Below are positions 481 to 63,460 of a DNA stretch of 64,000 nucleotides, in pieces. This DNA comes from Mytilus edulis. Taxonomy: Eukaryota. The translations under genes and the position numbers were made by a program. Location of the stretch: NCBI RefSeq assembly GCF_963676685.1, contig NC_092355.1, forward strand, positions 51,398,001-51,462,000. Reading direction: 5' to 3'. Every line of letters begins with the position of its first letter. Positions within the stretch are counted from its first letter, which is position 1. The notes beneath the pieces are model-generated. The model was not told where the DNA came from. It did no database searches and saw nothing but the letters and a program-made list of their open reading frames with translations.

Positions 481-620
481 TAAATAAGCTCATCATAGAT
501 ACCAGAATTTAATTTTTGTATTTGCGCCAGACGCGCGTTTCGTCTACAAAGGACGCACCACTGACGCTCAAATCAAAAGAAGTTAAAAGGCCAAAAGAAT
601 GTACCAAGTTGAAGAGCATT
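481..620 (-). mobile_element. Retrozyme fragment with degenerate type I hammerhead ribozyme (525-566)
   Basis: Reverse complement reads GAGCGTCAGTGGTGCGTCCTTTGTAGACGAAACGCGCGTCTGGCG followed by the family 3' end CTGGTATCTATGATGAGCTTATTT; the CUGAUGA core is mutated. Confidence 0.8.
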
Positions 621-1175
621 GATTGAGACCTGTATGTCTCCAAAGGGTTGTAGAATTGTTTTGGAATTTATATTTTAGTTTGGTTGCTGTCTCTTTGAGT
701 AATTATTCATATATCGGCCTTTTATGTAGTACTAAAAATATTACTATAATAGTATACAATTAGACAATATCGTTTTCCTCAATTCTGATTAGTTCCTCGT
801 GGAATTATATTGTGTTTCTTGTGAGCAGGAACAATAAAAGCTAGACCCGAAAAAGTATCAGAGTTCTTAGTACTATATAATTATTGGTTTTTGGATGTTG
901 CTCAATTTTGTTTTTTTTTTAGTTCTGGTGCTTCTCTTTTCTCTTTAGGTTTTGGTTTTTAGCAATCGGCAATTCTCGGGTGACTCCGCTTCTCTCCATG
1001 AGGTACGGAAACTGCCGAGTTGTGACGATTAGGTTTTTGGAGTATAGGAAGATGCGTTATGAGTGCTAAGAGACAATTCAAGTCACAATTTATAAAAGTA
1101 AAACATTATAAGTCCATGTACGGTCTTCAACACGGAGCCTGGGCTTTGTCTGTTTTGTCTTTAGGTTTTAATGTA

Positions 1176-2723: not shown

Positions 2724-3359
2724 GATAATAAAATTGAGAATGGAAATAGGGAATGTGCCAAAGAGACAACAACCCGACCATAGAAAAAAAAACAACAGCA
2801 GAAGGTCACCAACAGGTCTTCATTGTTATTTTAGCGAGAAATTCCCGCACCCGGAGGCGTCCTTCAGCTGGCCCCTAAACAAATATATGACTAGTTCAGT
2901 GATAATGAACGCCATACTAATTTCCAAATTGTCATGATTGTACACAAGAAACTAAAATTAAAATAATACAAGACTAACAAAGGCCAGAGGCTCCTGACTT
3001 GGGACAGGCGCAAAATGCGGCGGGGTTAAACATTTTTGTGATCTCAACCCTCCCCCTATACCTCTAGCCAATGTAGAAAAGTAAACGCATAATAATACGC
3101 ACATTAAAATTCAGTCCAAGAGAAGTCCGAGTCTGATGTCAGAAGATGTAACCAAAGAAAATAAACAAAATGACAATAATACATAAATAACAACAGACTA
3201 CTAGCAGTTAACTGACATGCCAGCTCCAGACTTCAATTAAACTGACTGAAAGATTATGATTTCATCATATGAACATCAGGCACAATCCTTCCCATTAGGG
3301 GTTTAGTATCATACCATCATAACATATATGAGAAGAACATAACCCGTGTCATGCCAACA
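2724..3359 (-). mobile_element. 5'-truncated 3'-UTR copy of Penelope-like family 1
   Basis: Near-identical reverse complement of ~31027-31642, which directly follows the RT C-terminal ORF at 30516-31004. Confidence 0.85.
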
Positions 3360-3781
3360 TGCCAATACACTCTTATTGTACACAAAATTAAGAAAGAGAT
3401 GTTTTGTCTCTGAATGACAGTATACTCTAAACGTACACCAAAGCAAATATGTACTTGAGGCTGCTTTCAACTCTTTGGTCGGGATACTTTCTCTTTTAAC
3501 ACATTCCCCGTTTCCTTTCTCTTTTCTATTTAAGATTGCTCATTAACTGCTCATCTTGTGTGTGCATCATGTGACATATATAAACTCAAACAAATAAACA
3601 TATTTATATATAAATTTATTTCGATGGAACAATAAATTGAGATCGAAGGAAATATCAAATAAAATGTCAAAATGGCCATTTATAAATTAAGGAACACAAC
3701 CTTCGGTGGTTTAAATCGTATGTTTTGATCCCGGTGACAATGAACTACGACGTCATGTAAGTTTAATGATCTTATACAGTG

Positions 3782-3787
3782 TTTATT
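3782..3787 (-). terminator. Candidate polyadenylation signal AATAAA of the GNAT gene
   Basis: TTTATT on the plus strand ~260 nt downstream of the stop codon; an alternative signal lies near 3616. Confidence 0.45.
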
Positions 3788-4047
3788 CAAACATGATCTG
3801 TTTTGCCGACCTCTGAGATATTAAAAGTTCGCTCACATATCAGTTCAATAGGCTACGGATAATACAGTCAGTACTAACAATTAAATGTTCAAATGTCTAA
3901 TTGTTACGTCATACAAATGTTGCATGTTTTTCGGTTTCACCGCATCGTCCGTTTTAACAATGCCATTTGTTTCACGCCAGATAATGTCTGAAGACTTTAG
4001 ATTTTTCAAACTTCGTGGGATGAAGTTCTCAAAAATGTTACTTTTCA

Positions 4048-4621
4048 TCAGCTTCCTTCAATAGGTTTCAAATACTTTATAAATATGATAGAACTCACTA
4101 TCTGTCCATTTTGTAATTTCCCGCCAACCGGTAGAATACCGACTTTCTGGAATCCCCCTATTTTTTCAATAATCCTCAACATGCCCTTGTTACTTGAAAA
4201 CGTATCGATGTACATCCCAAAATATCCCAGACAAGTTGCAAATTTGACAGCTGTACTCAGAGCAAATTCTCCCAAGTATTGTTTCCTTTCGGTTCGCTTG
4301 ACAATTACAAATGGGTCTGCCATAGCACCGTGTCCTCTATAAAATTTGCTAACTGCAATAATAAATCCAGCCAAAAGGAGTCCCGATTCTTTACATGTGA
4401 TTGCAAAGCAGTCACTGTCTTTGATTTCCATTCGGAACTCTTCTTTTGATTCGAATTCATCTATGCCATAGCCTTCGCCACATTGAGCTGCTTCTTGAAT
4501 CATGCAGTAGGTTTCGGATATTTGGGTTTCCGTCATGTAGTTAACAATTATTGACCGTCCATTTTTCAACTGTGCTACCATAGGAATTTGTGGAATTTTG
4601 CCATCAAATACATTTTTTATC
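4048..4621 (-). CDS. GNAT-family N-acetyltransferase, main coding exon (193 aa protein with exon 1)
   Basis: Stop-free ORF; polypyrimidine tract ending TTGCAG|G at 4621; GNAT motif A-like FVIVKRTERKQYLG and motif B-like DTFSSNKGMLRIIEKIGGFQKVG; layout resembles Mpr1/AZC-acetyltransferase-type GNATs. Confidence 0.85.
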
Positions 4622-5263: not shown

Positions 5264-5271
5264 AGTTCCAT
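5264..5271 (-). CDS. GNAT gene first coding exon (ATG GAA CT)
   Basis: ATGGAACT|GTAAGT consensus donor; CT + G from exon 2 gives CTG and keeps the frame (MELIKNVFDGK...). Confidence 0.75.
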
Positions 5272-5382
5272 TTCACAATAAGCCAAATCCAAGCAAGGCA
5301 TTTTCTCTACACAGATACAGTGATGTATCTTATTACAGCCGGCAAGTAAATGAATAAGACGACTGTCAGAAGGATCAAAACA

Positions 5383-5416
5383 CACTGGTAGCTTGATTAA
5401 AGCAAAGCTGTTTATA
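5383..5416 (-). promoter_or_regulatory. TATA box plus Inr-like core promoter of the GNAT gene
   Basis: TATAAA at 5416-5411 on the minus strand, exactly 30 nt upstream of the A (5386) in Inr-like CCAGTG; 115 nt before the ATG. Confidence 0.6.
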
Positions 5417-5984: not shown

Positions 5985-7260
5985 AAAAGAGGGACGAAAG
6001 ATACCAAAGGGACAGTCAAACTCATAAATCTAAAACAAACTGACAACGCCATGGCTAAAAATAAAAAAGACAAACAGAAAAACAATAGCACACACGACAC
6101 AACATAGAAAACTAAAGAATAAACAACACGAACCCCACCAAAAACTAGGGGTGATCTCAGGTGCTCCGGAAGGGTAAGCAGATCCTGCTCCACATGTGGC
6201 ACCCGTCGTGTTGCTTATGTGATTACAAATCCGGTAAATAGTCTAATTCGGTAGGTCACATTCATGAAAGGGAAGGGGATTGTAGTTACGACGTAAGGAA
6301 CATATCCGATATCATTTGTGAAACGGTTATTCCAGAACGGTCAACCAACTCGTGATGGCGTCCGTAAAATTTACGAAGGGATGATTTCAACTTCACCATT
6401 TGGAACTCTTGGTTTAATAGCTTCCTTGTGAGCAGTAACCCTCTATCAAGAAAATCATGATAGGAAATGCAAGCACGGGAATATCGTATCAATTGGGAGA
6501 TATATACTCCGTATGCAGTTGCTGCTGGAATGTTGCTACTTAGAAATGGAAAGTTCACAATTGGAAAGCTGAAATCATCTCTTTTGTCGTAAAGTTTTGT
6601 TTTCAACCGACCCTCATTGTCAATTTCTAGATGTAAGTCAAGATATGAAGCCGACTTAACTGTATCTGTAGTATCCTTTATCTCCAATTCGATGGGATAG
6701 ATGCGTTCCACATAGTCACCAAATTTTGAATGGTTTAGTGAAAGAACGTCATCTATATAGCGGAAAGTAGAGTTAAAGGATATTGCTAACTTCTTATCTT
6801 TCTTCCTAAGAAGTTCCTGCATGAAGTCAGCCTCATAATAATAAAGAAACAAGTCGGCAAGTAGAGGGGCACAGTTTGTTCCCATTGGGATGCCGACAGT
6901 CTGTTGAAAAACACGTCCTCCGAACGTTACAAATATGTTGTCAATCAAGAAATCAAGCATCTTGATAATATCGGTTTCAGAGAATTTTTTGTTTGAATCA
7001 GAGTGATTCTTTACAAAGTATGATTTATCCCTCCCTAAGACAAGATACTTGTATCTACGTTGGCCATTCTTTTTTATGAAGCAAAGTAATACCAACTCTT
7101 TCAATTTGTCTTTTAGTTTGGAATGTGGAATACTTGTGTACAGAGTAGAAAAGTCAAATGTTTTAATACTGTTACAAGATGAAAGAGAGTTAGATTGTAT
7201 GTACTCTAAAAGATCTTTGGAATTTTTAAGTATCCACATCTGATTCACGCCACCTCTAGA
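5985..7260 (-). mobile_element. Penelope-like retroelement (Naiad-type), family 2, 5'-truncated; RT ORF 6286-7260 plus ~300 nt 3' UTR
   Basis: Uninterrupted RT with motifs TFDFSTLYT, GIPMGTNCAPLLADLFL, FRYIDD, LYDKRDDFSFPIVNFPFL; ORF ends after the thumb with no C-terminal endonuclease; 3'-UTR fragments recur at ~28565-28750, ~28890-28985 and ~49265-49410. Confidence 0.85.
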
Positions 7261-7637
7261 ACTTAGTCATGTTATAAATGCTAAAAAAAAACCACACACA
7301 CAAAAAAAACCAAAAAGCCAAAGAAAAAAAAGAATCATGATAGTTCATCAATTAAATACGGAAAACTTGTACAATACAAAACTTTTTACCGAATTTGTAC
7401 AAACAAAAATGAACTATTTGTTACTGAACGTGACATGTTCATGCATCAATCAATCAATAAACTTGAAGTATTAATTGATTATAAATCGGTAAAAGTAGAA
7501 AACATAAATTATTTATAATATTTTATACTCAAAAGTAAATTTACGATGAAATAAATCCCAATTTGAATTAAATTTGTAATGTTCATACATGTATTTGATC
7601 GTCTTCGTTCGCATAATACAATTTATTACTGTCATAC

Positions 7638-16393: not shown

Positions 16394-16527
16394 GTCAACT
16401 TCGTACTTTATTTGACCTTTTTAACTTTTTTGGATCGAACGTCACTGATGAGTCTTTTGTAGACGAAACGCGGGTCTGTAGGCGTATATACAAAATTTGG
16501 TCCTGGTATCTGTGATGAGTTTATTTT
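16394..16527 (+). mobile_element. Retrozyme fragment with type I hammerhead (16440-16484)
   Basis: CGTCA-CTGATGA-GTCT-tttgt-AGAC-GAAA-CGCGG-GTC; core intact, 3' strand of stem I disrupted; ends at family terminus CTGGTATCTGTGATGAGTTTATTT. Confidence 0.85.
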
Positions 16528-17977
16528 CAAATGATTTTCTTATATAATTTTTTTTTCATTTACATATTCAAAATTGTTTCAGTAGAATATTATGCCAAAA
16601 CCACATAAAACTATAATTGTTTTATTTTTTGACATTCCGCCTATCAGTTATAAAATTATTCCTCAACGTGGTTATTATTTTCATACAATAATCCTTGGTT
16701 CCTCGGTGCCATTTATTTGTTTCTTTATATATCAAAAGCAAACAAAATGTAACTTCTTCTTCTTCTTCTTGTTTGTATAAGCTTCCTATGGACAGGAACA
16801 CCTCTAATAATATTAGAGTATATATAAGGGTAATTTTGTGGATAATTTTTTATTTGTTTTTTTATGACTATGTACAGCGCACTATGTGTATGGTTGTTAA
16901 TATATGTACGTTTTTTTTGTTGTTGTGACTTTTATTGTAACTTGAATTATTGGCATATAATATCTTTATTGTAGTAACACGGAAACGTATTAAGGACATA
17001 CATGTAGTTAAAATCAATTTGACATTGACTTTTTTCAAAGTCAAAATTTGACATTTAAAATCTTAAAATTTCACAAACTTGAAATATTTACTTCGTACTT
17101 TAACTTAAAACTAGGACTTTTAAAAGGCAATATTTCGAGATTTTAAAAGTTAAAACTTAAATGTAAAGTCAAAATATCGAGATAAGAAAAGTTGATTTTC
17201 AAGTCTTAAGTTGAAATTTTAAGATTTTGAAAGTCTTTTAATTAGTGTCATTAAGAAATATGAAAATACATAATTTTACAGTCTTTAAAGGAGAGGCACC
17301 AATCTCCGTCATCGTTTATAGAGCAACACAGAGCAAGTTCGTTGGACAATCTTGATTACAGGCAATATGCCGTTTAAATACCTCTTGCTATATCAATAAT
17401 TGGTATAAGTTTCGCGCTTCATTGAAGAACTATTGGTGACCTTCTGTTGTTGTCGGTTTCCCCATTTACATTCTCAATTTTACATATAGATAAAAATATG
17501 TGGTATGGTAGCCACGGAGATTACTCTTAATCTAAGTCACAATTTGCAAAAGTAAACCATTATAGGTTTGCTCACTACAAACATGAAAGCCGACAGTCTC
17601 ATCTACGTAAAAATGAGAAAACGAGAAACACTAGTCGTACGAACTACACCAGCAAACAACAACCACTGAACATCATGACTTACGACAGGTTCAAACAAAT
17701 GCAGCGGTTTTAAACGTTTCAATAGGTACCAATAGTGTAAGAACACAACATAGTAAACGAAACAACATAATGACAAAAAATACCTCATCCCCATCTTTTT
17801 ATGAAACCCATGTAAGAAAAAAAAGGACAACTGGACCTAAACATGGTGATTAACTTGTTAAAAACAATACGCTTTTCAGCGTCTGAGTTCATTAAAAGAA
17901 CAACAACTACGTGGATGTGGTAGAGAGCACCTTTTGTTTAATTGTACTTGGTTAATGATAAATACATTATCTTACTA

Positions 17978-22422: not shown

Positions 22423-22780
22423 ATACCACTGTTGGTATGTCACTGCTGGTGGAGTTTTGATTCTCCGAGGTTATCATCAGCCAAATATTCAGCACTTCAC
22501 TTCTGTGCTGACATGAATTATACTTGAAATGGTCTTATTTATAAATTAACTGTTTACAAAACATTTGAATTTTTGTAATACTAAGGCTTTTCTGCCTCTG
22601 GAATAGATTACCTTAGCTATATTTTGCAAAGCATTCAGGACCAAAATCTTCAACTTCGTACTTTTTTGGGCCTTTTTAACTTTTTTGGATTCGAGCGTCA
22701 CTGATGAGTCTTTTGTAGACGAGACGCGCGTCTGCCGTAAACACAAAATTTTATCCTTGTATCTATGATAAGTTTATTTA
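22423..22780 (+). mobile_element. Nearly full retrozyme monomer with type I hammerhead (22696-22737)
   Basis: Colinear with 42700-43068; ribozyme has GAGA in place of GAAA. Confidence 0.85.
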
Positions 22781-25700
22781 AATATATACTTATCACGATT
22801 TCGCTATAAAAAAGAATATTTTGATAGTGAATTCCCGTGCATCGATTGTCGTTTGATGTTTTAAAATTATTTTTGTTTAGCAAATAGCTATTCATTATAC
22901 ACTCGATTCTTGAAAACCTTTTGATTAATGCAGTCTTTGGGCTCACAGAAAGACGATACATGCAATTGGCATAGAACAAAGTTTAAATATACTGCGTTTG
23001 AATTATCAATTTGTATAATTTTCATTTATTCTCAATGAAACTACAATAAAATAAGATTATTGAATATGTAGTTATCCGCCGAAGATGTTAAAAATATCCG
23101 GTTTACACTATTTTAAGAAAATGAATAAATAATCTTTATTTGAAGAGAATATTAATCCCATTTGTTAAACATTTAACTTATCTTCATGAGACCCCTTAAA
23201 ATAAAAATAACATGTAAACACATACAATATTCTGTCGTTAAATATTCTATATTTGAGAACCAGAATATATAGATTTTTAATTTGAAAAAAAGATGGCTAA
23301 AGAATCTAGATTTGAAAAATAGTTTTCCATCAGCTGAACGTAAATTATAACAGGAGAAAAGTTTCGTAACCAAATCTTATACTGATTAAAATACAAGCAT
23401 TGCCTTTTGATATTGAAAACAATGGACTCAGATAATTAGTGCTTCATGTATCTACTGTTAGCTAGCTATTTTAGGCTTACCGAAGAACCTGTTCGTTATT
23501 GCAACCGTAAAATAAAATTCTGATCATATCTGTCCAGACTGCTAATAATTATGATCGATTTGTTTATGTGACAATATTGATGCTTTCTCAGAAAAGTCAT
23601 CGATGGTCACACAAGCCCTATTCAGGGGAGATATGTATTTATCACGCGAAGATGACGTTGGTTTGTTGTTGCTTTTATTTTACATATTAGGTTGATGCTG
23701 AAATTTTCACGTTTGTGCTTTTTAAAATATGTTAGTTTGATATTGTTAGGCGAGAATCTTTCTGTTGAAAGTTAAATGTTAAATCCGAAAGTCATCATCC
23801 TTATCTTCAAAATCTACCCTTTTTAAATTTTGGTTGATTCTATTTCTAAGCAGGATTTTGGTTTCACATTTTTTGACTAATATAATTTCCAAAGTTAGGT
23901 TTAAAGACCCACGGGCTTTGTTCGTATAAGGCTGAGAGACATAAAAAACTTATATAAAAGAACAAAAATAAAAATAAACATAAATAAAAAAAAAAAAACG
24001 GAATAAAAAAGACATGAGAGTGCAAACAGTCAGATTTCTATTACCCCAAGATGGATGTTATACATACCGATATCAACATGGTCTATCGTCGGGAAAGATA
24101 ACAAAATCTAAAATGGCAAGTGTAACAAGGAGCATAACTCAATACTGCAAGCATTGGTTTCAATGAAAACATCGCGACTTATAAAACAAAAGCTGTTCAC
24201 ACAAACCTTAGTACAAACGTTTAGTACACTATTGCCGCCTACAAAAAGACCCATCATTGATGCTTAAATAAATACGTTATTTTAAGGATGTACTTTGTTG
24301 AAATTGAAAAATCAAGAATTTAAAATAGATACTATAACTAGTAAAAATATGAGAGGTTAAATGCTATAATACCATGTTCAATTCACCATTTTCTACATTT
24401 GACATGCCTATACACTGTACCTAGTCAGGAATATGACAGTTGTTCATTCGTTTGATGTTTTTTTATCATTTGATTTTGCCATTTGATTGGGAGCTTTCCG
24501 TTTTGAATGTTCCTAGGAGTTCAGTGATTTTACTTTTTAGAAACAAGATAATAAGCTAAAAATATTGATAGGCTATTGAGCTTTTTTCGAGATGTTTGAT
24601 TTTTAAAAGATGACAGGAAAAGGCTTACTCTGACTTTTAACTTACAATTGCATTGGAATTGTTTGGGTCACCAATTATAAGAAAAGAAATCTAGAACCTG
24701 CTTAAATTTTAGTAAAAGACCTTTTTTGAATTATTGAATTATTATAAGAAAGAAAAATGGGTGTTACGGGACAAATTTGTTATCTTTTATCGTAGGAAAA
24801 AACCGAACATCTGACACAAATTACTAAACCTCACCTTAGTACATTCTGAAGGCCAAATCAAATTCAAACTTTTGTATCTGGCCGTCACTAGTAAGTCTTA
24901 TGTGTACAAAACGCACTTCTGGCTCATAAATTTCAAACCTGGTGCCTTTTGTTAGCTATTATTCGTGTGTTTCTTTGTCAATTGTATTCTCCTATTTATT
25001 TGTATTGTAGTCCTGTAATGTTGTGTTGTCATTTTAATGTTATATCTAACATGGCCATAAAAGAGGGAGGTTTTGCATGCCATAAAACCAGGTTCAACCC
25101 ACCATTTTTTCTTTAAAAAATAACTTGTACCAAGTCAAGAATATGGTCATTGTTATATTATAGATAGTTTCTATGTGTGTTACATTTTAACGTTTTGTTT
25201 CTTTTGTGTCGTTTGTTTCCTCTTAAATTTGAGTGTGAATTCACATTATTATAAGACGTGTAAAGGTATTTTTCTATCCCAAATTCATGTATTTAGTTTT
25301 GATATTCTCATCGGATTTTGTCTAATGCTTAGTTAAGAACTGTGTGTGTTACATTTTAATGTTGTGTTGTCATTCTCTTATATTTAATGCGTTTCCCTCG
25401 GTTTTGGTTTGTGACCCGGATTTGTGTTTTTTTCTATCGATTTATGAGTTTTGAACATCGGTATGCTACTGTTGCCTTTATTTAAGGTAATGTGTCGTTC
25501 GGCTAGTTAATGAATACTTTAATTCGAACACCCTATGTAAGGCCTTAAATGTCTTTTGAAATCATTCCGTATATAATAATTTGTCGTTAGCTAATTGTCT
25601 TATTGACATTTTACAGATGAACCGACTCATTATCATTAGATATATATGTATACCCTTATTAGACGCTTAGGCATATAAAATCACGAAAAATAACTATTTT

Positions 25701-30144: not shown

Positions 30145-30515
30145 GGAATAAGACAGTTGGTGCCCATTCGTTTGTGTTTGAAATATTTATTTTGTCATTT
30201 GATAAGAGACTTTTCGTTTTTAATTTTCTTCGGTGTTCACTATTTTTGTGATTTTACTTTTTTTCTTATATATTAAAATAAAATAAAAACATATGACTGT
30301 GAGTTTAACCAGCACTGCCTGTTGTCTAGCCTTACTTACAAAGTGTTGACATTTTGACCCAGATAGACAAAACATATATACCGAAATCCAAATGAAAACT
30401 TAACGAAATGATCTGTATTTTAATTGAGTCAAAGAAAAAGAGGAAAGTATTGTTCGACAAACTAAGTCATAATGATAAATTAACTGTTTACACAACTTTG
30501 AATTTGTTTATTTGA

Positions 30516-31642
30516 ATTTATGATAAAAGGGATGATTTTTCATTTCCTATCGTTAATTATCCGTTTTTAGATGGTGACGTTCCCTTGTCACCATCTTACG
30601 GTGTTTATATATCTCAACTTGTACGATTCGCTCGTGTATGTAATAATGTTTTCGATTTTAACGAGAGAAATTTATGTATTACTGAAAAATTATTACACCA
30701 GGGTTTTCGATATCACAAACTAGTCAAAACATTTACTAAATTTCATCATCGGTATAAAGACATCATTCGTAAATATAGCTCAACATGCAGACTTCTAATA
30801 CGTTCAGGTATTTCACATCCAATTTTTTATGGTAATATTCTTTATAAAGCACAAAGGTGTCAGTATTCACCTCAGAAACTTACAAAACCCTTGAATAGAC
30901 TTATTAAGAAGGGATATAATTACGATACTGTTGTCAAGTCATTAAAGATTGCATATTTTGGCGTTACTATTGAGTCACTGATAAGGTCTTTGCATCGGAA
31001 CTAAACACATTTATTCTAAAAACAGTTGTTGGCATGACACGGGTTATGTTCTTCTCATATATGTTATGATGGTATGATACTAAACCCCTAACGGGAAGGA
31101 TTGTGCCTGATGTTCATATGATGAAATCATAATCTTTCAGTCAGTTTAATTGAAGTCTGGAGCTGGCATGTCAGTTAACTGCTAGTAGTCTGTTGTTATT
31201 TATGTATTATTGTCATTTTGTTTATTTTCTTTGGTTACATCTTCTGACATCAGACTCGGATTTCTCTTGAACTGAATTTTAATGTGCGTATTGTTATGCG
31301 TTTACTTTACTACATTGGTTAGAGGTATAGGGGGAGGGTTGAGATCTCATAAACATGTTTAACCCCGCCGCATTTTTGCGCCTGTCCCAAGTCAGGAGCC
31401 TCTGGCCTTTGTTAGTCTTGTATTATTTTAATTTTAGTTTCTTGTGTACAATTTGGAAATTAGTATGGCGTTCATTATCACTGGACTAGTATATATTTGT
31501 TTAGGGGCCAGCTGAAGGACGCCTCCGGGTGCGGGAATTTCTCGCTACATTGAAGACCTGTTGGTGACCCTCTGCTGTTGTTTTTTATTTGGTCGGGTTG
31601 TTGTCTCTTTGACACATTCCCCATTTCCATTCTCAATTTTAT
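30516..31642 (+). mobile_element. Penelope-like retroelement (Naiad-type), family 1, 5'-truncated; RT C-terminus 30516-31004 plus ~640 nt 3' UTR
   Basis: In-frame IYDKRDDFSFPIVNYPFLDGDVPLSPSYGVYISQLVRFARVC, homologous to the RT at 6286-7260; ends CCCCATTTCCATTCTCAATTTTATT. Confidence 0.85.
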
Positions 31643-31856
31643 TTGAAAAAACAAGTTTTTTTTCTACCCCATAAATAGATTACATGTACCACAGCTTGAT
31701 ATAATTAAAACCTTTCGAAATTGAGGGTCCTCCATTCTGTCCAAATGCTATCTTTATTTGGTCTTAATTAACTTTTTTATTTTTATGTCACAGATGACAC
31801 TTTTGTAGACGAAACGTGCGTCTGGGGTACAAAATATTCTCCTGGTATCTATGACT
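31643..31856 (+). mobile_element. 3' half of an old retrozyme monomer (5' part at ~30465-30510), split by the PLE insertion
   Basis: Both PLE flanks join to match the retrozyme consensus; decayed hammerhead at 31786-31827. Confidence 0.7.
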
Positions 31857-32360
31857 ATTATATATAAGTCAGATAAGTATCTTAGACGGCATAAGCGTTA
31901 TACATTTTAAACTGGTCATAAAACAATATAAATAAATTTGGTTGGAATTGAAGCAGAAAATTGAAAACAAATCGTTTGATTTATTGAAGTTTAACGCTAC
32001 TGTAGGAGCTGTTGGCTAGTTCAAATTGACTAGATTTCATTTTTGAGGAAGTTGTAGTTCTACAGAGATCACCACCGATTATTGGCATTAAAACTGTTAA
32101 TGTCTGAGTTGATCGCACCTTACAAGGATTAGGGTTTGAACAAACATCATCATTGTTGTCATCCCCGAGGAAGAACTTTTCAGACCACTCCGCTACTGAT
32201 GCCTCTAAATGTGTTTTTTTCTGTCTTGATTTAACACTGATACATAAAGGCCTAATTAAATTTAAAATTTAAAAAGATCATATTGCATTCAGACATGATC
32301 AAACTTACTATTTCATACAATTCATGAATAAATCAGGGACTGGATGTAAGATTTTTTCAT

Positions 32361-40764: not shown

Positions 40765-41412
40765 TGTCTGTGTTGACAAGAGTTATCATTGATTTGGTCA
40801 TAATCATGAATTAACTGTTTACAAAACTTTGATGTTTTTCAATACTCAGGCTTTTCCACCTCCAGAATAGATTATCTAAGCTGTATTTTAGCAAATTTTG
40901 GGGGACTCTTTGGTCCTCGGTGCTCTTTAGCTTCGTATCCCATTTGAATTTTTTTTATATGAGCGTCACTGATGAGTTTTTTGAAGACAAAACGCTCGTC
41001 TGGTGAAAATAAAATATTTTAGTCCTGGTATCTATGATGAGTTTATTTACATCCACTAGGTCGATGTCACTGCTGATGGAGTTTTTTCCCCCAAGGATAT
41101 CACCAGCTCAGTTATCACTATTTCTGTGTTGACATGAGTCATCATTGATATGGTCATACATTGTAATTATAAATTAACTGTTTACAAAACTTTGTGTTTT
41201 TTCAGTACTAACTTTTCTCCCTTTTGAATAGATTACCTTAATTTAGCATTATTTGGCAAATCCTTTGGGAATTTCGATATTCCTCAGCTTCGTACTTTAT
41301 AATATCTTTTTATCTTTTTCTAATCGAGCGGAACTGATGAGTCTTTTTTACAAAGAAATGTGCGTCTGGCGCAAAATTAACTTTTAGTCCTTGTATATAT
41401 GAATAGTTTATT
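40765..41412 (+). mobile_element. Tandem retrozyme (~1.8 monomers) with two decayed hammerheads
   Basis: Hammerhead relics at 40964-41005 and 41329-41372; GUC cleavage positions 41000 and 41366 give a 366-nt period. Confidence 0.85.
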
Positions 41413-42580
41413 GTTATACATTCGTTTGATGTGTTTGATGTTTATATTTTGCAATTTTATTATAGAATATCCGTTATGAATCTCGATCGGATTTCGTTAT
41501 TTTTCTATATTTACTTTGATTCATTTGACAATGAAGATGTGATATGATTGCCAATACGACAGCTTTCCACAAGAGACCAATTGACACAGAAATTATCAAC
41601 TATAGGTCAGTATACGGCTTTCAACAAAACCCATACCGAATAGTTAGCTATGAAAGGCCCTAAAAAATAAATGTAAATCAATTCGTACGAATAATTTAAC
41701 AGCCTAATTTGTGTACAAAAAATGAACGAAAAACAAATATGTAAATAAGATTATCATTGTCTATAAAAGCTTCATCAGTGACGCTCGAATAAAAAAATAA
41801 TATGAAAAGGCCAAATAAAGTACGAATAAATAACACATCAATAAACGACAACCACTGAATTACAGGCTCCTGAGTTGGGACAGCCACATACATACCGATC
41901 CGAATCATCCCCCTTACCAGGGACAATGGTGTAAAAGTACAACATAAGAACGAACTATAACGTCAGTTGATAAAGGCTTAACTCATCAGATTGAAATACA
42001 TCTGACAAAAATAACGATTGCAATATCATACTTTGTTTGATATTGCAATTGATTAGACTGTGTAATTGTTTTTTGTTTATATTTGGTTCTTTGCATGTAC
42101 TTTGATTTGAATGTTGTATCTTTGATATTCGTTTGATTATATTTACAAATAATATATCTATGTAAGGATTCAATATTCAATAGCTTTCAGTCATCACGCG
42201 AATGTTCTCCATAAAAAAGATTCCATTTAATCACCAGACCTTCACCTGCGTATTTCTTTTTGTTTGTTTTAAATATTTAATCCATATGACATTACAACAA
42301 CAGGAACAATGAGCTTAACTTGTGTATTCTAGAATGGAAACATATTATCTGAAACAGAAAAATCCATTCAGATTTATTTATCATGAATATCCTTTCTTTA
42401 AACTATATCGTATTACTCGAATGCTTCCTGTGGTACAAATCCTTATTATATTCTATTGTCCTGAAAATGCAGCAAATATTAGGCACTGGACGTTGTTTTA
42501 TATTTTTCATCGTATTGAAAATGCAAAAAATATTTGTAACTGTACAGTTGTTTATTTTTTTTAACATGCAAGAATTATTG

Positions 42581-43068
42581 ACGCGTCTGGCGTTTATACA
42601 AAATTTAGCCCTGGTATCTTTGATGAGTTTATTTACAACCACTGGGACGATGCCACTGCTGGTGGAGATTTATTTCCCCGAGTTTGATGAGTTTATTTAC
42701 AACCACTGGGACGATGCCACTGCTGGTGGAGATTTATTTCCCCGAGGGTATCACCAGCACAGTAGTAAGCACTTTTGTGCTGACATGAATTATCATTGAT
42801 ATGGTTACATGTACATTTATAAATCAACTGTTTATCAAATATTGATTGTTTTAAATACTAAGGCTTTTCTACCTCAGGCATAGATTACCTTAGCTGAATT
42901 TAGCAAAACTTTTTTGAATTTTGGTCCTCAATGCTCTTCAACTTCGTGCTTTATTTGGTCTTATTAACTTTTTTGGATTCGAGCGTCACTGATTAGTCTT
43001 TTGTAGACGAAACGCGCGTCTGGCGTATATACAAAATTTAGTCCTGGTATCTATGATCAGTTTATTTA
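42581..43068 (+). mobile_element. Greater-than-unit-length retrozyme insertion
   Basis: Begins ACGCGTC|TGGCG, contains a 64-bp tandem duplication (42619-42746), hammerhead at 42984-43025 (CUGAUUA variant); absent from paralogous module A copies. Confidence 0.85.
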
Positions 43069-44454: not shown

Positions 44455-44750
44455 ATGACTGATGTACCCATATTTTGACTACTATATTTATTGTGTCTGT
44501 TTATTTAACGCATCAATGTAAAAATATCGGAAATTGATGAGACTGTCATTAAAGTGAGAGGGTTAGCGCTATAGAACCAGGTTTAATCCACCATTTTCTA
44601 CATTTGAAAATGCCTGTACCAAGTCAGGAATATGACAGTTTTTGTCCATTCGTTTTTGATGCGTTTTGTTATTTGATTTTGCCATGTGATTATGGACTTT
44701 CCCAATTGATCTTCCTCTAAGTTCAGTATTTTTGTGATTTTACTTTTTAG
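44455..44750 (+). mobile_element. Short retroposed element inserted in module C copy 2
   Basis: Absent from the other C copies; related copies at ~24350-24540, ~40590-40750 and, on the minus strand, ~8655-8820 and ~60000-60230. Confidence 0.7.
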
Positions 44751-45939
44751 TATCTCCAAAAAATAATGCTTTAAGGTTTAAAGTTACACAATCATGCAAC
44801 GAAAACATTGATAAACTATTAGACCGTTAATATTACCAATTAACGTGTATTGGAACTTCGCATCTCTAGCTTTTATTGATATATGTAACATTAACAAAGA
44901 TAAATCAATATAACCTTCAAAGCATCAACAAATAACGGTAACGGTTATGGCTACCAAGACCTTTTATAGAACCTGTTGGGATTTGTTTTATATGTTATTT
45001 TGTAGACCTTATATAGGTGCTATAATGTGTTACATGTAAATAAGGAATTCCAGTGCAAAAATGTCCCTTTTCTAAAATCTGAATACCCTAATTGTCTAAC
45101 AATGGGGCACGATTGATACTACTGAATAACAATGTTATGTGATTACTGAATACTATAAATACTTTAATGACAAAACCGAAGTAAGAATACTAAAATCATT
45201 AAGGAACGAAACAATAAATAAGGACCAAGAAAAGAAATATTAACATCGGTACCAATTGTACTGCACCAGATATGCAGTTTTAAAATAAATGTCTCTCTTT
45301 TGATGCTCGAAGTAAAGAGGCTGTATTTCTGTCACGCAGTGTTGTCATTTTAGCAATACTTGTTAACAATTCCATGTCAGTGGGAGGTTTGGCTAGCCAT
45401 TAGACAAGGTTCAACCCACGAGTTTTTCTTTAAATGTTCCTCAACAAGTAAGGAATATGGCAGCTGTTATCAAATAATTCGTTTCTATGTATGTTGGTGT
45501 TTGTTTTTGTTGCACGTCAGTGTTTCTGTTGTTCCGTTGTTTTCTTATGACTTTTGACCAGCGGTATACTACTGTTGCATTTGTAAATGAATATATAGCA
45601 TCTTGAAATTATAACAATTAAATGGAACGCGATTAAAAAAAATCACAATTATTGTTACTTTTAAAATACTTCAAATGATTATCATAATTATGACGGTTTT
45701 AAAAGGTTATTCTAAATCAATGCTGTGACGACATCATATTCATTTAAACTAACACAATACTTTATGCATTGAAAATGAAAATTATCTTGACTATACTGAC
45801 AAATAAAACATACGTGAAATGTACCGAAAATACAAAATTTAAACCACAAACGATAATACAGAATTCAATATCCAGCCGTATTTACTAAAGAAACATTATA
45901 TATTACAAGGTGTTCAACTATATATAAATATATATACAT

Positions 45940-46147: not shown

Positions 46148-46202
46148 ATATGCAGAGTCAATGTGTAAAGTTTTAGGAATGTGGGTTGATAGCTGAAGTA
46201 GT

Positions 46203-52982: not shown

Positions 52983-53182
52983 ATAATAGCCATTCATTAA
53001 ATGAATTTCTGCAAATGCATGGTTTTAGCATCATAAACATGATGAAGGAAATACAATAAGACATGTAAGACAAACGATAAAACAAAATCAAACGAAAATC
53101 TACAAATTAAGGCATATAAAGCTACACATCTATCCATAATCTAGTAAATAGTTATCAAAGGTTCCAAGATTATAATTTATTA

Positions 53183-53224
53183 CGCCAGACGCACGTTTCG
53201 TCTACATAAGACTCATCAGTGACG
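53183..53224 (-). ncRNA. Intact minimal type I hammerhead ribozyme (within retrozyme fragment ~53144-53365)
   Basis: CGUCA-CUGAUGA-GUCU-uaugu-AGAC-GAAA-CGUGC-GUC^UGGCG: stems I and II pair, the catalytic core is complete, stem III is minimal. Confidence 0.85.
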
Positions 53225-56200
53225 CTCAGATCAAAATAGTTGTAAAGCCAAACAAGTACAAAGTTGAAGAGCACTGAGGACCCAAAATTCCAAAAAGTAA
53301 GAGAATCGTTAGTTTTTTCGAAAAATTCAAATTTTTGTAACAGAAAATTTATAAAAATGATCACATAAGGTGAGGTGCTACGTCTAAGCAGATCCTAATC
53401 AACATTTGAAACCCGTGGTTTCGCTTGCGTAAGTACATGTGATGTGACATTATTGAAATAGCTTTTATAATTTATAATTGTTCCTACGGAATTGGATCAT
53501 CTCATTCGTCATCTATGAATAATGGGAGTCTTGATAATTAAACTAGTTGTTAATTTAAAAAAAGTTAATTACATTTTTAAATACCAGACGAAAGGTTTTG
53601 AGAAAAGGTTAATGTAAACATAAAACAAACATATAAAACGATCTCGGGCTTTTGGATTCATTTGCAATTATCCGGGATTGAATAAATACATGTTCCTAAA
53701 AATAATCAATTGATATCTTATAGTGTGTCTTTCTATGTTATGATGTTACACTATTGTTTCATGAAAGTGTGAAGGTTGGTACCTATTTAAACGTTTAAAC
53801 CCGCTGCATTTGTTTGCGACTGTCCTTAGTCGGGTACCTGATGTTTCGTAGGTTTTTGATGTGATTCAAAAGTGTTTCTCTTTTTTTTTATATATAAATT
53901 AGTTTGTTAGTTTCCCCGTTTGAGGGATTTTACACTAGTAATTTCGGGGCCTTGTATATCTTGTTGCCAAGACACCGTATTGAAGACCGTACTGTGACAT
54001 ACATATAATGGTTTACTTTTACAAATTGTGACTTGGATAGAGAGTTTGCATTGGCACTCATATCACATCTTCTTAAATCTATTTTTATTAAAAAGAAAGT
54101 TGTAATCCCGAGAGGAAAAGTAAGGAAAATACATTTTTTGTTGTTATTATGTCTCCTTAGTATCAAACACCTTTCATATGAATGACTTTTTAAATTTCTT
54201 ATTCCAGAATGATGATTTTTATCCACGGTAATCGACATATTTCTTTTATAGGATAAATAAGGCTATAGACCTCTTATGTATGTTAACGTCGATTTCAAAA
54301 TGGCCATCGACCTTAACACGTAAAGTGACAGCAATAACCATATTTCTAACCACAATATGTACATGTCTCCTATACATGATTTCTACGTGTCACTTGCGTG
54401 GATTATAAACATCATGCAAGCAAAGTCAAGCAATTATGTCGTTTGGGAGAAAATAACATGATATCTATAAACATTAGATAAGGCGATATGTTAAGAGCTA
54501 TTGTAAATTTCCAAGAGATTCCAAAATAGTCATATTCTTCAATCCTTTCAAAATCATGTCATTTAAGATGATAAATAAATAGGACGATGTGATCTTTAAT
54601 CTTGGATACAAATGTGAAGACAGATGTCATAATTTCATAAACATGCTATATTAGCTACATTGGAAAACATTGTTAATTCTATTTGATATAATACTTTAAC
54701 CATAATCTTTACTATGTTTTCTAATCATTAATTTCTTAGAATAAAATATGTGTAGAAAACAATCTGTTTCGGTTAGGCCTTAGCTAACATATAAGTGTTA
54801 TCCAAATCAGATCTGAAAATATCGCAATGTCACTTCTGTTTTGACGGTTTGCTATAAACACAAATATCTAAAAAATAATTGAAAACTGCATATGCAGAAA
54901 TTGAACCTTTTTATATTCGAATCCATTTGCATTTCATTTTGCAGAGACCTTTAAATGTGTGTGCCACTCTCACTACCCTCAACCCACACACACTTATGTA
55001 TTACTATTTCAATTTCGATTGTATTTTCTATCCAATTGTGGGGTCTCGGTGGCCAAGTGGACTAAGTAGTTTCTACTGAATCACTAGCCAGTAAGTTCAA
55101 AAATGTATGTAATAGAATTTAAATACCGCCATAGACTAATAAGACCTATATATTTTGAGTTGTTTGATATAAGCTATAGATATATTTTCTAACGCTATCA
55201 GTTTAAACTTTAGTGCATGAAGAAATTTTTCCAAGAACACTTTTCATAGGCAAATATTTGTATCATAATTTTCTTGTTAAAAAAAGGTTTTATAGGTATC
55301 GAAATTAAAAAAAAAACCACTTAAATATCGACTCGAGCAAAACTTTGCCACTAAACCCCTTACTATCCACACCATCATTTCGAAATTGACAATTTGTATT
55401 ATATCTAGGCCAATATGTTCGTATTCCGGAGAATTAGAAGAAAGTATGTGCATAGAAAATAATAGTTTGAAATGTTTTTACTGTCTATTCCGTGACTTTA
55501 ACAACATAATTCCATTTGGTATTGATAAATAGGAAAGATTCACAATGTCATATACAAAAATATCTTGAAAACTGAATACATATACCAGTAATCAAAATCC
55601 TGAGTCTTGAATCTAGGACAATATCATTGTCTTTCGTAAAGCTAAAACATAGGATGTACTAAGAAATTGATAATTAAGAATTTTGTTTTATGTTTATATA
55701 GAGAACTTAGTAATAAGATTCCATTAAATATTGATGAATATGAAAGTTTCAAATACAAAGGCAATATCCGGATAGCTATATAATTATCATTGTTTTCCAA
55801 ATCATTAAATTAAAAACAAAATTTCCTGATGCAACTTTTCATTTTTGAAACCATAAAGATATGAATAAAAATTAATTACATGCATGTTTTGCCATAAATT
55901 TTTGATTTCAAAAAGAAAAGCGGTAAAAGATTTCTTAATGTCTTGATTATGCAATTCTAAAAACATTGTCCAATCCAAAATAATTTTGAGGAAAATTGCA
56001 ACGTAGGCGAATTTGTTATTTGGGTGGAACTGCACTGGATAACCACAACTGTTTAAATAGTTTTATTGATGAAAGTTGAAAATGTGTCTGATATCTAGGC
56101 TAATATGTCTTTAGATTTTGTCTTTTAATCATTTCTATTAATCCAATACCTCACTATCTGAAAGGCAAGGTCAAAGAGATTAAAAATAAGCGTTAAACGT

Positions 56201-58152: not shown

Positions 58153-61100
58153 TTAACTATTTAATATCCATACAACCAATTTTGACATTAACAACGAGTC
58201 TTGAAGCTAGGACAATACCATCCTGACCATTGTCTTTCGTAGAGCGGAAATATAGGATGTTTGTAGAAAATGATAATTAAGAATTATTTAATGTCTATGC
58301 AGTGACTTAAGCAATATAATTCCATTTATTATTGATTAATATGAAAGTTTCGCATACAGATGCACAATTATAAACGCTATATGTGATCAAAGTCCTACAG
58401 GCAATATAATTTCCATATCAGAATGTTAAAAAATATCCATACGTAACTATTTTTATTTTGACACGCCCGAAGAAATGAATAAAAACAAACAATTACAACA
58501 TAAAAGTTTTAGTATATAAATTGCAAACAAAAAGATAAATGTTGATGTCAAATTTGCTGAATGCCAAGATTATGTAATGTAGTCAATATTTCTAAAATAC
58601 CTTTTAAAAGAAAAATGCAACGTTAGCGATTTAGTTACTTGTCTGAAACCGCACTGGATAACCAGTACTGTTGTATAGTGTTATAAATCAAAGATCAAGG
58701 TCTTTAGACTAGTCCTTGATATTAACAAAACATCACACTATCGCAAATAAAAGGTTAAATAGATTAAACCAATGTAATGCATTCAAGCGTTACATAGTTA
58801 TTGTTAACTATAGTACCTTAACGGATTATCGACAAACTGAAATTTGATTTAATCTTTATTAGAAAAACAGCAAACATGTTATTATGGTTATAATGCATAA
58901 CTAAGACAATATTACAACTGTCTTGATAATAAATCATATCATCCTCTACAAATTCATGTTCTAATAGCATAGATACGAGTTAAACAAATGTAGCATGAAA
59001 ATTAAGATAAAACTGGACTTAATATATATTGCATGTTGTCAAATAATTTTCTGGATTTACCTACAGCATCCACCATTCCACGAGGATGATAAAATAATAT
59101 TTGGCCTGGAATTAAAGATAGAACACGAAAGAGCACTTCATAAATCGTAGTCTTTCGAAGCACTTTCTTACAAAGATAAAACAATTAAAAAGATAGTACG
59201 TGAGGGTTTGGGTGGGATTTGCAGATTTTAGAAAAACGTGCATAACATTTAGAATAGTGGGCAAAACATACAGAGACACGAGAAAAATGGGCGATACATT
59301 CCACCAACAAGAGTGTTACGAAATTCTGCACTCGAAACAGTTGAAATATTTAAAGCGCGAGGCCTGCAGAGACTTTAAAAAATTAAGATTAAACTGTTGA
59401 AAGTGAAGAAATATCGTAATACACTATCTATCCTACTTTGTCAAATGTTGTTCCAGAAAATCGATTTCGTTCATGATAATCGATATCCCCTTTTTGTGGT
59501 AAATCTATATAGCTCTAATTGATGTAAAATTTGGCTTCTTAATATGCATCGGTCCTTCAAATGTTTTGGGTATACGTGAACGTTCTACCACAATGTTTGT
59601 GAGTATGACCAACCAGTCCTGTATACATTATTTCCACGCGGGACTTGCATGTATTACGCATTCTGCGATGAACCAATTTGAAGCAATTTATGTCGTATCT
59701 AAGCATGCTATCTCTGAACATTAAAGAAGGTGGTATGTAAAGAGCTACTTTCTATTCCAAGAGATTCCTGAAAGATAATATTATTTAATTATTTTTAAAT
59801 CATGTTAGTTCAGTTGTTAAATAAATAGGACGTTATTACATTTAAACTTTTCGAAACAAATGTCAGCACGGATGTCATTAACATAGAAATTTGACATTTA
59901 ATACATTGATTTTGGACAATAGGTTATAATTCAATATCTTTATCATAACGATGTTTTGCCATCACTAACTTCTTTACATAATATTTGTTTTGTAGCAAAA
60001 AGTAAAAGCCCAAAAATACTGAACTCTGAGGAAAATTCAAAACATATAGTCCTTTATCAAATGGCAAAATCAAAAGCTCAAACAAATCAAACGAATAATT
60101 AAGAACTGTCATATTCCTAGCTTGGTATAAGAATTTTCTTATATAGAAAATTGTGGATTAAACCTGGTTTTATGGCTATATAAACCTCTCATTTGTATGA
60201 CAGATGCATAAAATTCCATCTTAATGACAGCTGTGTGAACAAAAAAAAAACATACATAACAGGTCAAAATGTCTAAAACATCATACTATCGTTATGACTA
60301 ACATCTTTATGTTATAATATAATTATCTGAAAATCTGTCTGATATGTTTGGTTTTTGTGATTTTGCTGTTAACACTAATGTTTTAAAAACAGAATTCGAA
60401 ACCATATTTTCTATAATTTACTACACGAATCAAATTGCAGATGGGTTTTTTAACAACCCCACGAACAAACACTGAAGCATTATCAAAACGTATTTTGTCT
60501 TTGACAGGTGAAGATAATTGTTGAATAAACTGTAATTATACTCCTACTAAAATGTCTCCGTCATCAAAGACTTCTTGCTAATATCTAGAATATACTACTT
60601 ACATTCAGATTCTCGTAAATAAATGAACAGTAATACAATCTTCATGTTTTTGTTTTTAGAGTCAAATTGCTCTTGAAATGGTATCAATAACAGTTTATGC
60701 AATAAAGAATCAATTAAGATGTTGTTTACTAGGAAATCAACAGCTATATATTTCAATGGACATGTCAGTTTTCTTCTACCGAAACAAGTTAACAGTGTTG
60801 AGGGTGATTAATTTAAGTTAATCGCAAATGTTTTAGTGGGCATTTTTGTAATTTCCAGTTAATGAATTATGTAGTACTAAGTTTAGTTTAATTTGGTCCC
60901 CGCGACAATTTAACTTAAAGGGTTTGGGCTATTTTATTTAAGCTTTTTAAGATATATTCTCTAAAGCATTTCCTCGACCTTTGGCGTGCATGAAAATTTG
61001 CATAAGCATGCACAAATATTGGTATCATTCTGTTTGTATGACGTAAAAACAAGTTTTTTGTCCATGGATTTATGAGTTCTGAACAGCGGTATAAAACTGT

Positions 61101-63460
61101 TGCCTTTATTTATCTTACTAACAATTTAAAATTTACAAATTTATTCAAAAGGAAAACAATAGATGGTTAAAAAATTGCTGAAAGTAATAATTTGGCAAGA
61201 AAAACATAGTGTTATCCGTTTTCATTGTTTGTCTGTAGACGCACAGGATTAATAAAGCTTTTTTATAAATAGTGTTATTGATCAAATATCAAAGTCTATA
61301 TATAAGTTGTTTGATTGTTAAAATTAACAAAGCATCATCTTATCTCAAAAGGTTAAATAGTTTAAACCAATTTAAATCATTCGGTCTATTGTTAACCGTT
61401 GTTATTACTTATAAAACCTAAAATGATCTTCTACATATTTCACTAAAATCTTCAAAAGAATAACAGCAAACATGTTTTGAAACTGTATTAGGGGTAACTA
61501 GGACCAAAATACAACTGTGCTGATTATCCTCATCGTGTATTATATCTTCGTTATTACAACATCTAAATAATGGTGTATGAATACTTTACGAAATACAGCA
61601 CTTTTCATACGTCCGACACACTTTTCTTAATTTCCTTTCACAATCTAAAAAGATCATACTGAACTTAGTGAGAAATACATTCATTGAAGGTACTAGAAGT
61701 AGCGTAGAATGTTGTTTGCAAGACGCGCGTTCGAATTACAAGACCCAGAATTGACGTTTGAATCAAAACAGCTAAAAAGGCTAAAAACTGTCGAAGGAAA
61801 ATGAAGACACAACGTTACACTCATGGTTTTGACAAACACATATCAGTGTATCTATACCTCGGGTCATTGCCATGCATTCATAGGGCATTCTTTGTTTATT
61901 GATCTTTTTGCAACAGAAAGACAACTTGTAGACCGCTATTTTCGTACTTGCGTGAGTTGTAAAATTGAATCGCTCGAGGAAATTAGTATGTTTACAGAAG
62001 CTGAATAGATTTGATAGGGGAAAACTATCTAGATATGACGTTTAACAATCAGAATCACTTAAAATACTTATAAATGAATGACAAATACCGGAGAAACAAA
62101 TTCCGAACACAATAAATCTATAAAAAAAACTTTTAATTTGTGTAGTTCAACTTAACTCTTAATGTGAGTATTCCTAAACCATATAACAATGGTATGAAAT
62201 AAGAAACAGCTCGGTAAATTAACTTGATGATGATAGGGTGGACACATTTTCAGGACTGTTTTATTCGGTTGTTGAAAAAATAGCTCCACAACAACCCCAA
62301 AATAAGCCATGCACACAGTACATTCATCCCCAAAACATAGCCATAGCCCATCAGATGAGTACGCAGTTTTTTTTAGACTATGTTTTTTCTTTTACAAAAT
62401 ATGGATAAATTGAAATCGATCAATCGTTCATTTACCAACCATGACATCTACATCGATGGTTGTCAGCTGAGATTGAAAATCGATTTCTTAAATGATCGTC
62501 CATTAGTCGACAGAAAAATCATCTTTATGTTTTTGTTTATTTGGGAAGATGTTATTTCTTAGAATGGTATCAATGACATTGTTTTCAACAAAGTATCAAT
62601 TAAGATGTTGTTTACTAGCAGCTGCAAAAGATATGTATTGTCACATAAACATTACATTTCTGCATTTTTGTTAATTACTAGCAGAGGTTTGAAGCGTCAA
62701 CCATGTTTAGATTAAATTTAAACAGTTCCAGGGTGATTGTCTTGCGAATTATTTCACAGACATGCTTTTCTTCATTGACAAACGATCATGGACACATTCC
62801 CACAAAGATGCGATCGACATGTATAGGGAAGTCTGGAGTTCAATAAATACTTTGTTGCCAAAGGTTTATGCAAGTCTTTATGCATATTTCGAAGCATGCA
62901 ACATATGCAACAACGGAATTATACGGCTCGCCAAATACAAGAACATATCTTACACAATACCAGGCTGATATATTTATTATCAATCACGGATTGAACGTCA
63001 AATGATACATTGCTTAAAATTAGTAATTTTAATTTCATGAATGGATGCAACTGTAGTAAAATTTGTGGTTGCTCCCAAAGCCAAGTTGACCTTCACGTTT
63101 TGACCTGTTTTACAAACTGAAATTATGATCTTCAAATTTCATTCTCTACAACATTAACTCGATCTGAAAAAATATTACACACCACCATCTCCGACAGTGA
63201 AAATAAGTCGTACTATTGTCCTAGATACAAGACTCATTTTTAATACCGCATATGATGTTGTGCAATTTTTTAGATCGAGTTTCCGTAGGACGAAAAAAAA
63301 AGGATATTGCTTGGAAGTTAACTGTAATCATGTCTGAGCGCCGACTTAACAAAACTTTTCATTTGATGTTAATAAGTATTCTAAACTTCACATGCAAAAG
63401 AGAATTGAATTTTAACATGCTTTTCCTGCCATAAATTTTAGTTCAAATGCTAGATATAAC

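Follow-up and report, generated by a model that had tools for sequence, protein, structure and literature searches.

A stretch of 64,000 nucleotides (nt) of the Mytilus edulis genome (contig NC_092355.1, positions 51,398,001 to 51,462,000), here called the window, holds ten insertions of a hammerhead-ribozyme retrozyme, most of them dead, that end just before a hairpin of the type that stands at the 5' start of Naiads. We consider it likely that these insertions were written by the reverse transcriptase (RT) of Naiads, a clade of Penelope-like elements (PLEs). The retrozyme itself is already known, and it and its copies in the window are ordinary; what is new here is the Naiad hairpin in register with the insertion end. 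Known systems were compared through seven sources (PMC7229834, PMC4918200, PMC8557442, PMC11167929, PMC7761336, 10.1101/721605, and 10.64898/2026.07.22.740005), and statements that cite them hold for the accessible part of each text.

A hairpin shared with Naiads

When retrozyme monomers are set against the whole unit of Naiad family A, the only significant match is to the first 63 to 66 nt of that unit, with 87% identity, E 5e-18, and a score of 86 in one case and 82% identity, E 4e-13, and a score of 68 in the other; the best of 200 shuffles scored 34 and 33. This 63-nt hairpin folds alike in retrozyme and Naiad, and across seven sequences 7 of its 18 pairs are changed on both sides, 96.8% of cells pair, and none of 500 shuffles reaches the covariation score. 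It is present in four mussel retrozyme families and in one family of another host, a 343-nt hammerhead repeat (from one record set), and another Naiad carries it too; end mapping of that 343-nt family, with the motif used, gave a downstream tail at 0 of 16 loci.

All 30 loci retrieved with one core pattern proved to be Naiad copies or retrozyme-type repeats, and a metagenome scan returned 31 loci, namely, 3 Naiad starts, 20 AT-rich loci that match retrozyme arrays, and 8 GC-rich loci that look like chance matches. An exact-string search of the 54 published Naiad consensus sequences (supplement of PMC8557442) detected the hairpin core in at least 16 of them, lying at the start or close to it; these belong to corals, hemichordates, bivalves, and one fish. 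The accessible text of that paper leaves the 5' hairpin unmentioned. Rfam offered no family for the hairpin in the Naiad tandem, the array, and three other loci that were compared with it. HDV-like and twister folds were dropped by eye, since the strand order does not fit their consensus.

Insertion ends that track the hairpin

Insertion ends were mapped in unselected DNA, that is, the window, its flanks (200 kb), and a blind sample (800 kb) of the 1.37-Gb genome made up of 80 segments, each 10 kb long and placed at a round coordinate; the genome is the one with its 14 large contigs. There, 46 of 69 insertions of at least 60 bp end inside a span of 8 to 10 nt, as do 27 of the 31 that are at least 85% identical; the span lies at +44 to +53 after the cleavage site in family 1 and at +39 to +46 in family 2. 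At the 5' side the copies stop at many different points, with no more than 13 of the 46 extending over a full monomer length.

Measured against the hairpin, the median end falls at -6, -6, and -5.5 in retrozyme families 1, 2, and 4 (n = 30, 24, and 10) and at -5 and -7 in Naiad families A and C (n = 42 and 16), always in a T-rich stretch. The distance from cleavage site to hairpin, by contrast, is variable (53, 47, 46, or 39 nt), and so the end tracks the hairpin, not the ribozyme. Moreover, directly after the 3' end in its tandem copies, Naiad A has sequence that corresponds to the retrozyme immediately past the fixed end. The retrozyme thus has both a terminal sequence and an end register in common with an autonomous element, as a non-autonomous Naiad partner should.

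Of the 46 tail-anchored copies in 1.30 Mb, 41 extend beyond the cleavage site, 1 ends no more than 5 nt from it, and 4 are shorter. Fixed 3' ends, combined with copies that cross the cleavage site, suggest that reverse transcription starts at a fixed internal point and that the template is circular or uncleaved. The target-site duplications that mark short interspersed elements (SINEs) driven by long interspersed elements (LINEs) did not rise above control, either at 10 nt or more (3 of 80 versus 17 of 600 control pairs) or at 7 nt (9 of 80 versus 39 of 600).

We also considered, and rejected, the possibility that the retrozyme forms the 3' end of some autonomous element. With Naiad A as the sole query, Naiad-like coding pieces lie within 900 nt upstream in 11 of 148 insertions, at varied distances and on both strands, and so there is no constant parent.

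Naiad A as the probable helper

Naiad A is young, with many whole 1,000-residue frames in the genome and a tandem unit of 3,370 nt. Its frame carries GIY-YIG at residues 135 to 172 (E 0.04, under the cut-off), CxC at 431, DKA at 558, and RT at 645 to 854; PMC8557442 gives the marks of a Naiad and a body of 3.4 to 4.4 kb. The RT frame at 6286-7266(-) of the window corresponds to residues 677 to 1000 of the Naiad A frame, and its family shows the N-terminal GIY-YIG, CxC, DKA, C-terminal RT, and partial tandems of Naiads. The other RT frame in the window is a 162-residue tail; both Penelope-type frames are 5'-truncated.

A preliminary description of this DNA, made from the sequence alone, had guessed that a PLE RT serves as helper and had pointed to candidates in the same window. 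The hairpin and the end register, both of which the 6286-7266 family has in common with the retrozyme, support the guess. Proximity does not, because RT fragments are so abundant genome-wide (62,803 and 40,713 first-look candidates) that the nearness of one to a retrozyme is meaningless.

Likenesses between the retrozyme and Naiads extend to heavy 5' truncation, partial tandems, and the lack of clear target duplication (PMC8557442). The two differ in content: Naiads encode an endonuclease and an RT, reportedly without canonical hammerheads (PMC8557442), whereas the retrozyme is non-coding and has a hammerhead.

A further Naiad family, B, deserves a remark of its own. In six of six full-length copies (L239, L241, L242, L244, L248, and L251), four in-frame TGA codons occur in the same places, three of them within endonuclease-region cysteine motifs and the fourth directly past DKA; downstream of the stop lies a SECIS-like (selenocysteine insertion sequence) element (Rfam 32.3 bits; gathering score, 35). 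Its pieces in the window lie at 30515-31644(+), 2727-3359(-), and 21355-21888(+). Judged from these sequence features, Naiad B is likely a mussel selenoprotein Naiad; selenoprotein Naiads are listed for clams and spiders only in the accessible text of PMC8557442.

Retrozyme families

The preliminary description rightly placed the repeat among metazoan non-LTR (long terminal repeat) retrozymes. Family 1 reads as the published 375-nt retrozyme of Mytilus galloprovincialis, its monomer being the same by eye, without alignment, as the sequence in Additional file 11 of PMC4918200. In that mussel, two hammerhead families with repeats of 350 to 390 bp are known, circular RNA is abundant in tissues by Northern blotting, and one copy self-cleaves at about 0.1 per min (PMC7229834). 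The M. edulis elements agree with it in family 1 sequence, unit length, low GC, type I hammerhead, and the presence of both tandem and dispersed copies (PMC7229834, PMC4918200). They differ in number: about 5,000 motifs in two families are reported there (PMC7229834), compared with 11,877 exact 32-nt hammerhead cores (control, 0) and at least four families here. PLEs are named merely as candidate helpers in PMC7229834, whose accessible text names no helper family, fixed insertion end, or Naiad hairpin.

Young arrays elsewhere in the genome consist of tandem units that each bear a type I hammerhead, spaced 362 to 365 nt apart in family 1 and 354 to 360 nt, once 342, in family 2, slightly below the monomer of 365 to 370 nt first proposed; the window has only two tandem insertions. 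One array (L087) scores 33 bits with Rfam Hammerhead_1 in all four units (gathering score, 34), and a long one (L032) has about 18 units. The hammerhead had been described as minimal type I. Type I is correct; minimal is not, since in families 1 and 2 stem III still has 3 bp, which form a palindrome, and stem II has 4 bp, where the minimal PLE type has helix III reduced to the conserved pair. Canonical type I hammerheads are assigned to retrozymes, and minimal ones are assigned to PLEs (PMC7229834, PMC7761336). Monomers have 36 to 37% GC, within the limit of 45 to 50% for retrozymes, and no coding function is apparent: the sole frame of more than 120 residues overlapping a copy (42353-42799) starts outside the repeat and ends inside it.

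Family 4 (L253-L277) has a monomer of 348 to 352 nt that is 67 to 70% identical to families 1 and 2, its own hammerhead with a covarying stem II, and the same hairpin and end; a 25-nt marker for it has 1,896 exact genome matches. In a third family (L225 = G000:C6:3717780-3720809; L280), the same hairpin is present and stem II of the hammerhead barely pairs. Separately, old hammerhead-tail fragments (window 24870-24961; L027, L075, L106, L130, and L159) repeatedly have the same sequence on their downstream side, an indication of a repeat family that is composite or related.

RNA evidence

Raw RNA reads from four runs in two studies were mapped on one natural monomer each of families 1 and 2, taken from intact arrays. 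For family 2, three of the four runs are strand biased: pairs whose first mate maps to the minus strand are 2- to 11-fold more numerous, and in most stranded libraries this orientation corresponds to RNA of hammerhead sense. Coverage stays level over the cleavage site, no position collects molecule ends, and head-to-tail joints are common (883 versus 45 reads by strand in one run). At the junction, sense-strand reads pass through, with depth falling by only about 20% and no heap of ends. Family 2 reads therefore fit circles or uncleaved tandem RNA, not linear cleaved monomers. Also, loose ends with unlike flanks occur in the reads at the same places as the insertion ends.

A proposed route from circle to insertion

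Intact tandem arrays elsewhere in the genome would supply the transcripts, as stranded reads show for family 2. The hammerhead would excise monomers, and a host ligase would close them into circles, as published for M. galloprovincialis. A circle that carries the 63-nt hairpin after a T-rich stretch would then reproduce the 3'/5' junction of tandem Naiad RNA, as comparison of the two sequences makes plain. The Naiad protein would bind the hairpin, nick AT-rich DNA, and start cDNA 5 to 7 nt upstream, inside the RNA, a step suggested by the insertion ends and by the in vitro behavior of another PLE. Finally, the RT would go back over the tail, past the cleavage site, and round the unit, mostly falling off early, which would yield the observed pattern of fixed 3' ends, ragged 5' ends, hammerhead-without-hairpin fragments, and occasional multimers.

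In PAc Poseidon, the other PLE, reverse transcription begins at an internal AC-rich site of the RNA and requires downstream RNA; the element nicks AT-rich DNA, and its insertion is independent of hammerhead cleavage (PMC11167929). This behavior resembles that proposed for the mussel retrozyme, with the difference that PAc belongs to another PLE clade and uses its own RNA in cis.

A broader proposal, for which we see about as much reason to doubt as to believe, is that the hairpin is the RT-loading and start-site signal of Naiads, kept from corals to fish, and that mussel ribozyme circles parasitize Naiads by carrying it.

Weighing the Naiad reading

Several observations tell against writing by a Naiad RT. 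The span for the 46-of-69 count was chosen after the ends were seen, and the copies behind the end-register medians include loci picked by searches. Inverted 5'-truncated partners, which are common in PLEs, accompany only 2 of 148 insertions. The compensatory changes in the hairpin come mostly from one outside Naiad and one inner pair, with few independent lineages, and with Naiad C included the covariation is weaker (4 of 12 pairs, with 3 of 500 shuffles reaching the score). The matches listed leave up to 38 of the 54 published Naiad consensus sequences without the exact core. Naiad B, which is also young, has no match to the hairpin model, although it bears a look-alike stem-loop in the same place, and thus the hairpin is not universal in recognizable form. 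A 3' tail motif shared by the two kinds of element did not reach significance (P 0.055 to 0.063). As for the RNA, short reads cannot separate a circle from an uncleaved tandem transcript; family 1 reads are fewer and show little strand bias over most of the unit; reads 99% identical to the reference copy are few (27 to 57 of 3,046 to 9,588 per run); and the runs are tied to the best DNA records by species label only. Naiad binding, priming, and the start site are themselves steps that we infer from sequence and by analogy.

The best-surviving alternative, which we nonetheless regard as unlikely, holds that the hairpin was captured from the Naiad 5' end as a promoter or RNA-stability element, so that the fixed end would mark where transcripts start or stop and not where an RT is placed. 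LINE-type internal promoters sit at the corresponding position in LINEs, and all of the ends lie in T-rich stretches, as this explanation would have it. Covariation, however, argues for RNA structure, and the slight drop in depth at the junction, with no pile of ends, indicates that the abundant RNA does not end there.

Could the helper instead be of the kind suggested for vertebrate retrozymes, either a LINE or a canonical, hammerhead-bearing PLE whose endonuclease is C-terminal? This genome does contain young PLEs of the latter sort, several with hammerhead-like motifs of their own, and a third retrozyme family has a weak match (E 7.5e-4, 41 nt, AT-rich) to a family with a 911-residue frame. 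In the vertebrate case, Xenopus retrozymes match PLE pseudo-LTRs (10.64898/2026.07.22.740005). Yet the PLE hammerhead-like motifs differ in sequence from the retrozyme hammerhead, and the canonical PLEs surveyed have no hairpin of their own. In 46 loci retrieved around GIY-YIG matches, sampled from the best 150 of 858 candidates in a survey of PLEs and not of LINEs, the hairpin profile matched at just two places, a copy of Naiad C and a locus into which retrozymes had inserted separately, and a covariance model run over 16 of these loci matched only at the latter. We therefore think this helper quite improbable.

The vertebrate system is otherwise a parallel to the proposed writing by Naiads: its retrozymes have terminal sequence in common with PLEs and are proposed to borrow their proteins (10.64898/2026.07.22.740005). 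The evidence there is the Xenopus pseudo-LTR homology; the accessible text of the preprint reports Naiad in coral only, defines no start signal, and has no mention of Mytilus, mussel, bivalve, or mollusc.

Spread as satellite-type DNA by DNA-level recombination, with the hammerhead a mere passenger, has in its favor the long arrays and the target-duplication counts given above, which do not exceed control. Naiads too, however, are often without discernible duplications (PMC8557442). The copies are polar, fixed at one end and ragged at the other, and occur as dispersed insertions in both orientations; this is the mark of reverse transcription and largely refutes spread by recombination, leaving it very improbable.

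Copies in the window

With a profile based on 92 copies that lie elsewhere, the window yields 12 matches and no more, at 27.6 to 141 bits, against 6.4 bits for the best reversed-sequence control; an earlier profile from seven window copies had found 12 at E 5e-8 or better, with a best E of 0.21 in 20 shuffled windows. The 12 hammerhead sites are copies of one repeat and group into ten insertions (Table 1). Their positions and spacings are as the preliminary description gave them: the cleavage-site C lies at 41000, 41366, 42587, and 43020, the first two 366 nt apart and the last two 433 nt apart, or 369 nt once the 64-bp duplication, now located, is subtracted.

The hammerhead that was said to occur at each of these sites is intact, with core and all three stems, in only one, 53183(-). 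Core positions are changed at seven (525, 22696, 24883, 31786, 40964, 42984, and 61718), for example, G8 at 42984, G12 at 40964, and A14 at 22696; two are partial (41760 and 42581); and two keep the core with broken stems (16440 and 41329). Self-cleavage is thus predicted to be lost in 11 of the 12 copies. A scan of the window against Rfam gave no match at gathering score; with Hammerhead_1, the model proposed for checking the sites, the best reached 30.3 bits against 34. Folding of isolated hammerheads gave no signal (z -0.2 to 0.4), and whole circles fold modestly (z -1.4 and -2.5 versus base shuffles). Both tandem insertions are damaged and neither has two intact hammerheads, so that, given the established core requirements, neither could release unit-length RNA by double cleavage.

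The population had been called dense and locally complete. At 20 bits or more, the blind sample has 59 matches, or 4.7 per 64 kb, and the flanks have 18, or 5.8 per 64 kb. The 12 in the window are therefore about 2.5 times the blind mean, with P 0.044 from a block bootstrap that ignores regional clumping. This is a modest excess, and intact hammerheads are not enriched (1 versus 1.4 per 64 kb, from 18 in the blind sample; the flanks have 7). Extrapolated from the blind stretches, the genome holds about 100,000 copies. Completeness fails outright: intact hammerheads never come in twos within one insertion of the window, and its RT frames are truncated. What the window holds is a graveyard of mostly dead copies, not a complete system. 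Very little credence attaches to the idea that it actively generates circles on the spot with a helper RT of its own. The excess of copies and the Naiad fragments lend some color to this idea, but the hammerheads (one intact, none paired), the mixed age of the copies (75 to 97% identical to young arrays elsewhere), and the truncated RT frames contradict it.

Table 1. Retrozyme insertions, hairpin, and Naiad pieces, in window positions
Position	Strand	Feature	Remarks
480..622	-	Family 1 fragment, 5'-truncated, with fixed 3' end	Hammerhead core broken at C3, A6, A9
5985..7261	-	5'-truncated Naiad family A copy, last 1,277 of 3,370 nt, 98% identical	No endonuclease, RT incomplete; likely helper family
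16395..16530	+	Family 1 fragment	Core preserved; stem I has 3 nt inserted, stem III a mismatch
22425..22780	+	Family 1, nearly whole single monomer starting at hairpin (22418-22492)	A14 changed
24870..24961	+	Old fragment nearest family 2	Four core changes
30515..31644	+	Naiad family B 3' end, truncated	SECIS-like element 31056-31120
31709..31860	+	Old family 1 fragment	Core changed at U4; pairing of stem II broken
40767..41412	+	1.8-unit tandem insertion	Cleavage-site C 41000, 41366; hairpin 41045-41118; first hammerhead G12 changed, second with stems I and II broken
41759..41826	-	Incomplete hammerhead that lacks its 3' half	
42582..43068	+	1.2-unit insertion with 64-bp internal duplication 42619-42746	Hairpin 42695-42769; 42984 hammerhead G8 changed
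42695..42769	+	Best window copy of the 63-nt hairpin common to the Naiad 5' start	
44630..44752	+	Naiad family C 3' end	Family whose 5' start reads as published Naiad_Mgal
53144..53368	-	Family 2 fragment, 5'-truncated, without hairpin	
53182..53225	-	Sole intact type I hammerhead of the window	Cleavage predicted after 53188
61677..61796	-	Most decayed fragment	Core changed at six positions

Other features

A 208-residue intronless frame at 4048-4674(-) has a weak GNAT acetyltransferase match (E 0.005, under the cut-off). Another frame, of 206 residues at 47084-47704(+), has no match in Pfam or to Naiad A; we take it to resemble the C-terminal part of an L2/CR1-type LINE protein. Arrays of a 35-bp minisatellite, with units about 70% identical, occupy 14151-15026. 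Old degenerate segmental repeats in three to four copies, 65 to 80% identical, lie at 34484-38158, 42036-45014, 48813-52588, and 54357-63876, and their translated self-comparison shows no convincing coding conservation. Elsewhere in the genome, several PLE families with a C-terminal endonuclease have their own hammerhead-like motifs downstream of the frame (L339, L344, L346, L347, and L353).

Implications

The literature, in its accessible part, leaves open which enzyme returns the circles of animal retrozymes to the genome as DNA and where synthesis starts on an endless RNA. Our literature searches, whose coverage leaves out most subscription journals, turned up no report of a connection between mussel retrozymes and Naiads and no description of the hairpin. 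With the hairpin link come a candidate helper family whose young genes are intact, a proposed signal of 63 nt, and a predicted start site placed to within about 2 nt. A structured RNA at the Naiad start, without an Rfam match, also ties a hammerhead parasite to a PLE clade reported to be without canonical hammerheads. If the hairpin is the signal that we propose, Naiad and the hairpin would be the first helper and the first cis signal to be defined for any animal retrozyme, and the hairpin, an RNA element, would fix the template start for a sister enzyme of telomerase. Any RNA circle with the hairpin would then be reverse transcribed into the genome, lap after lap, from a fixed internal point.

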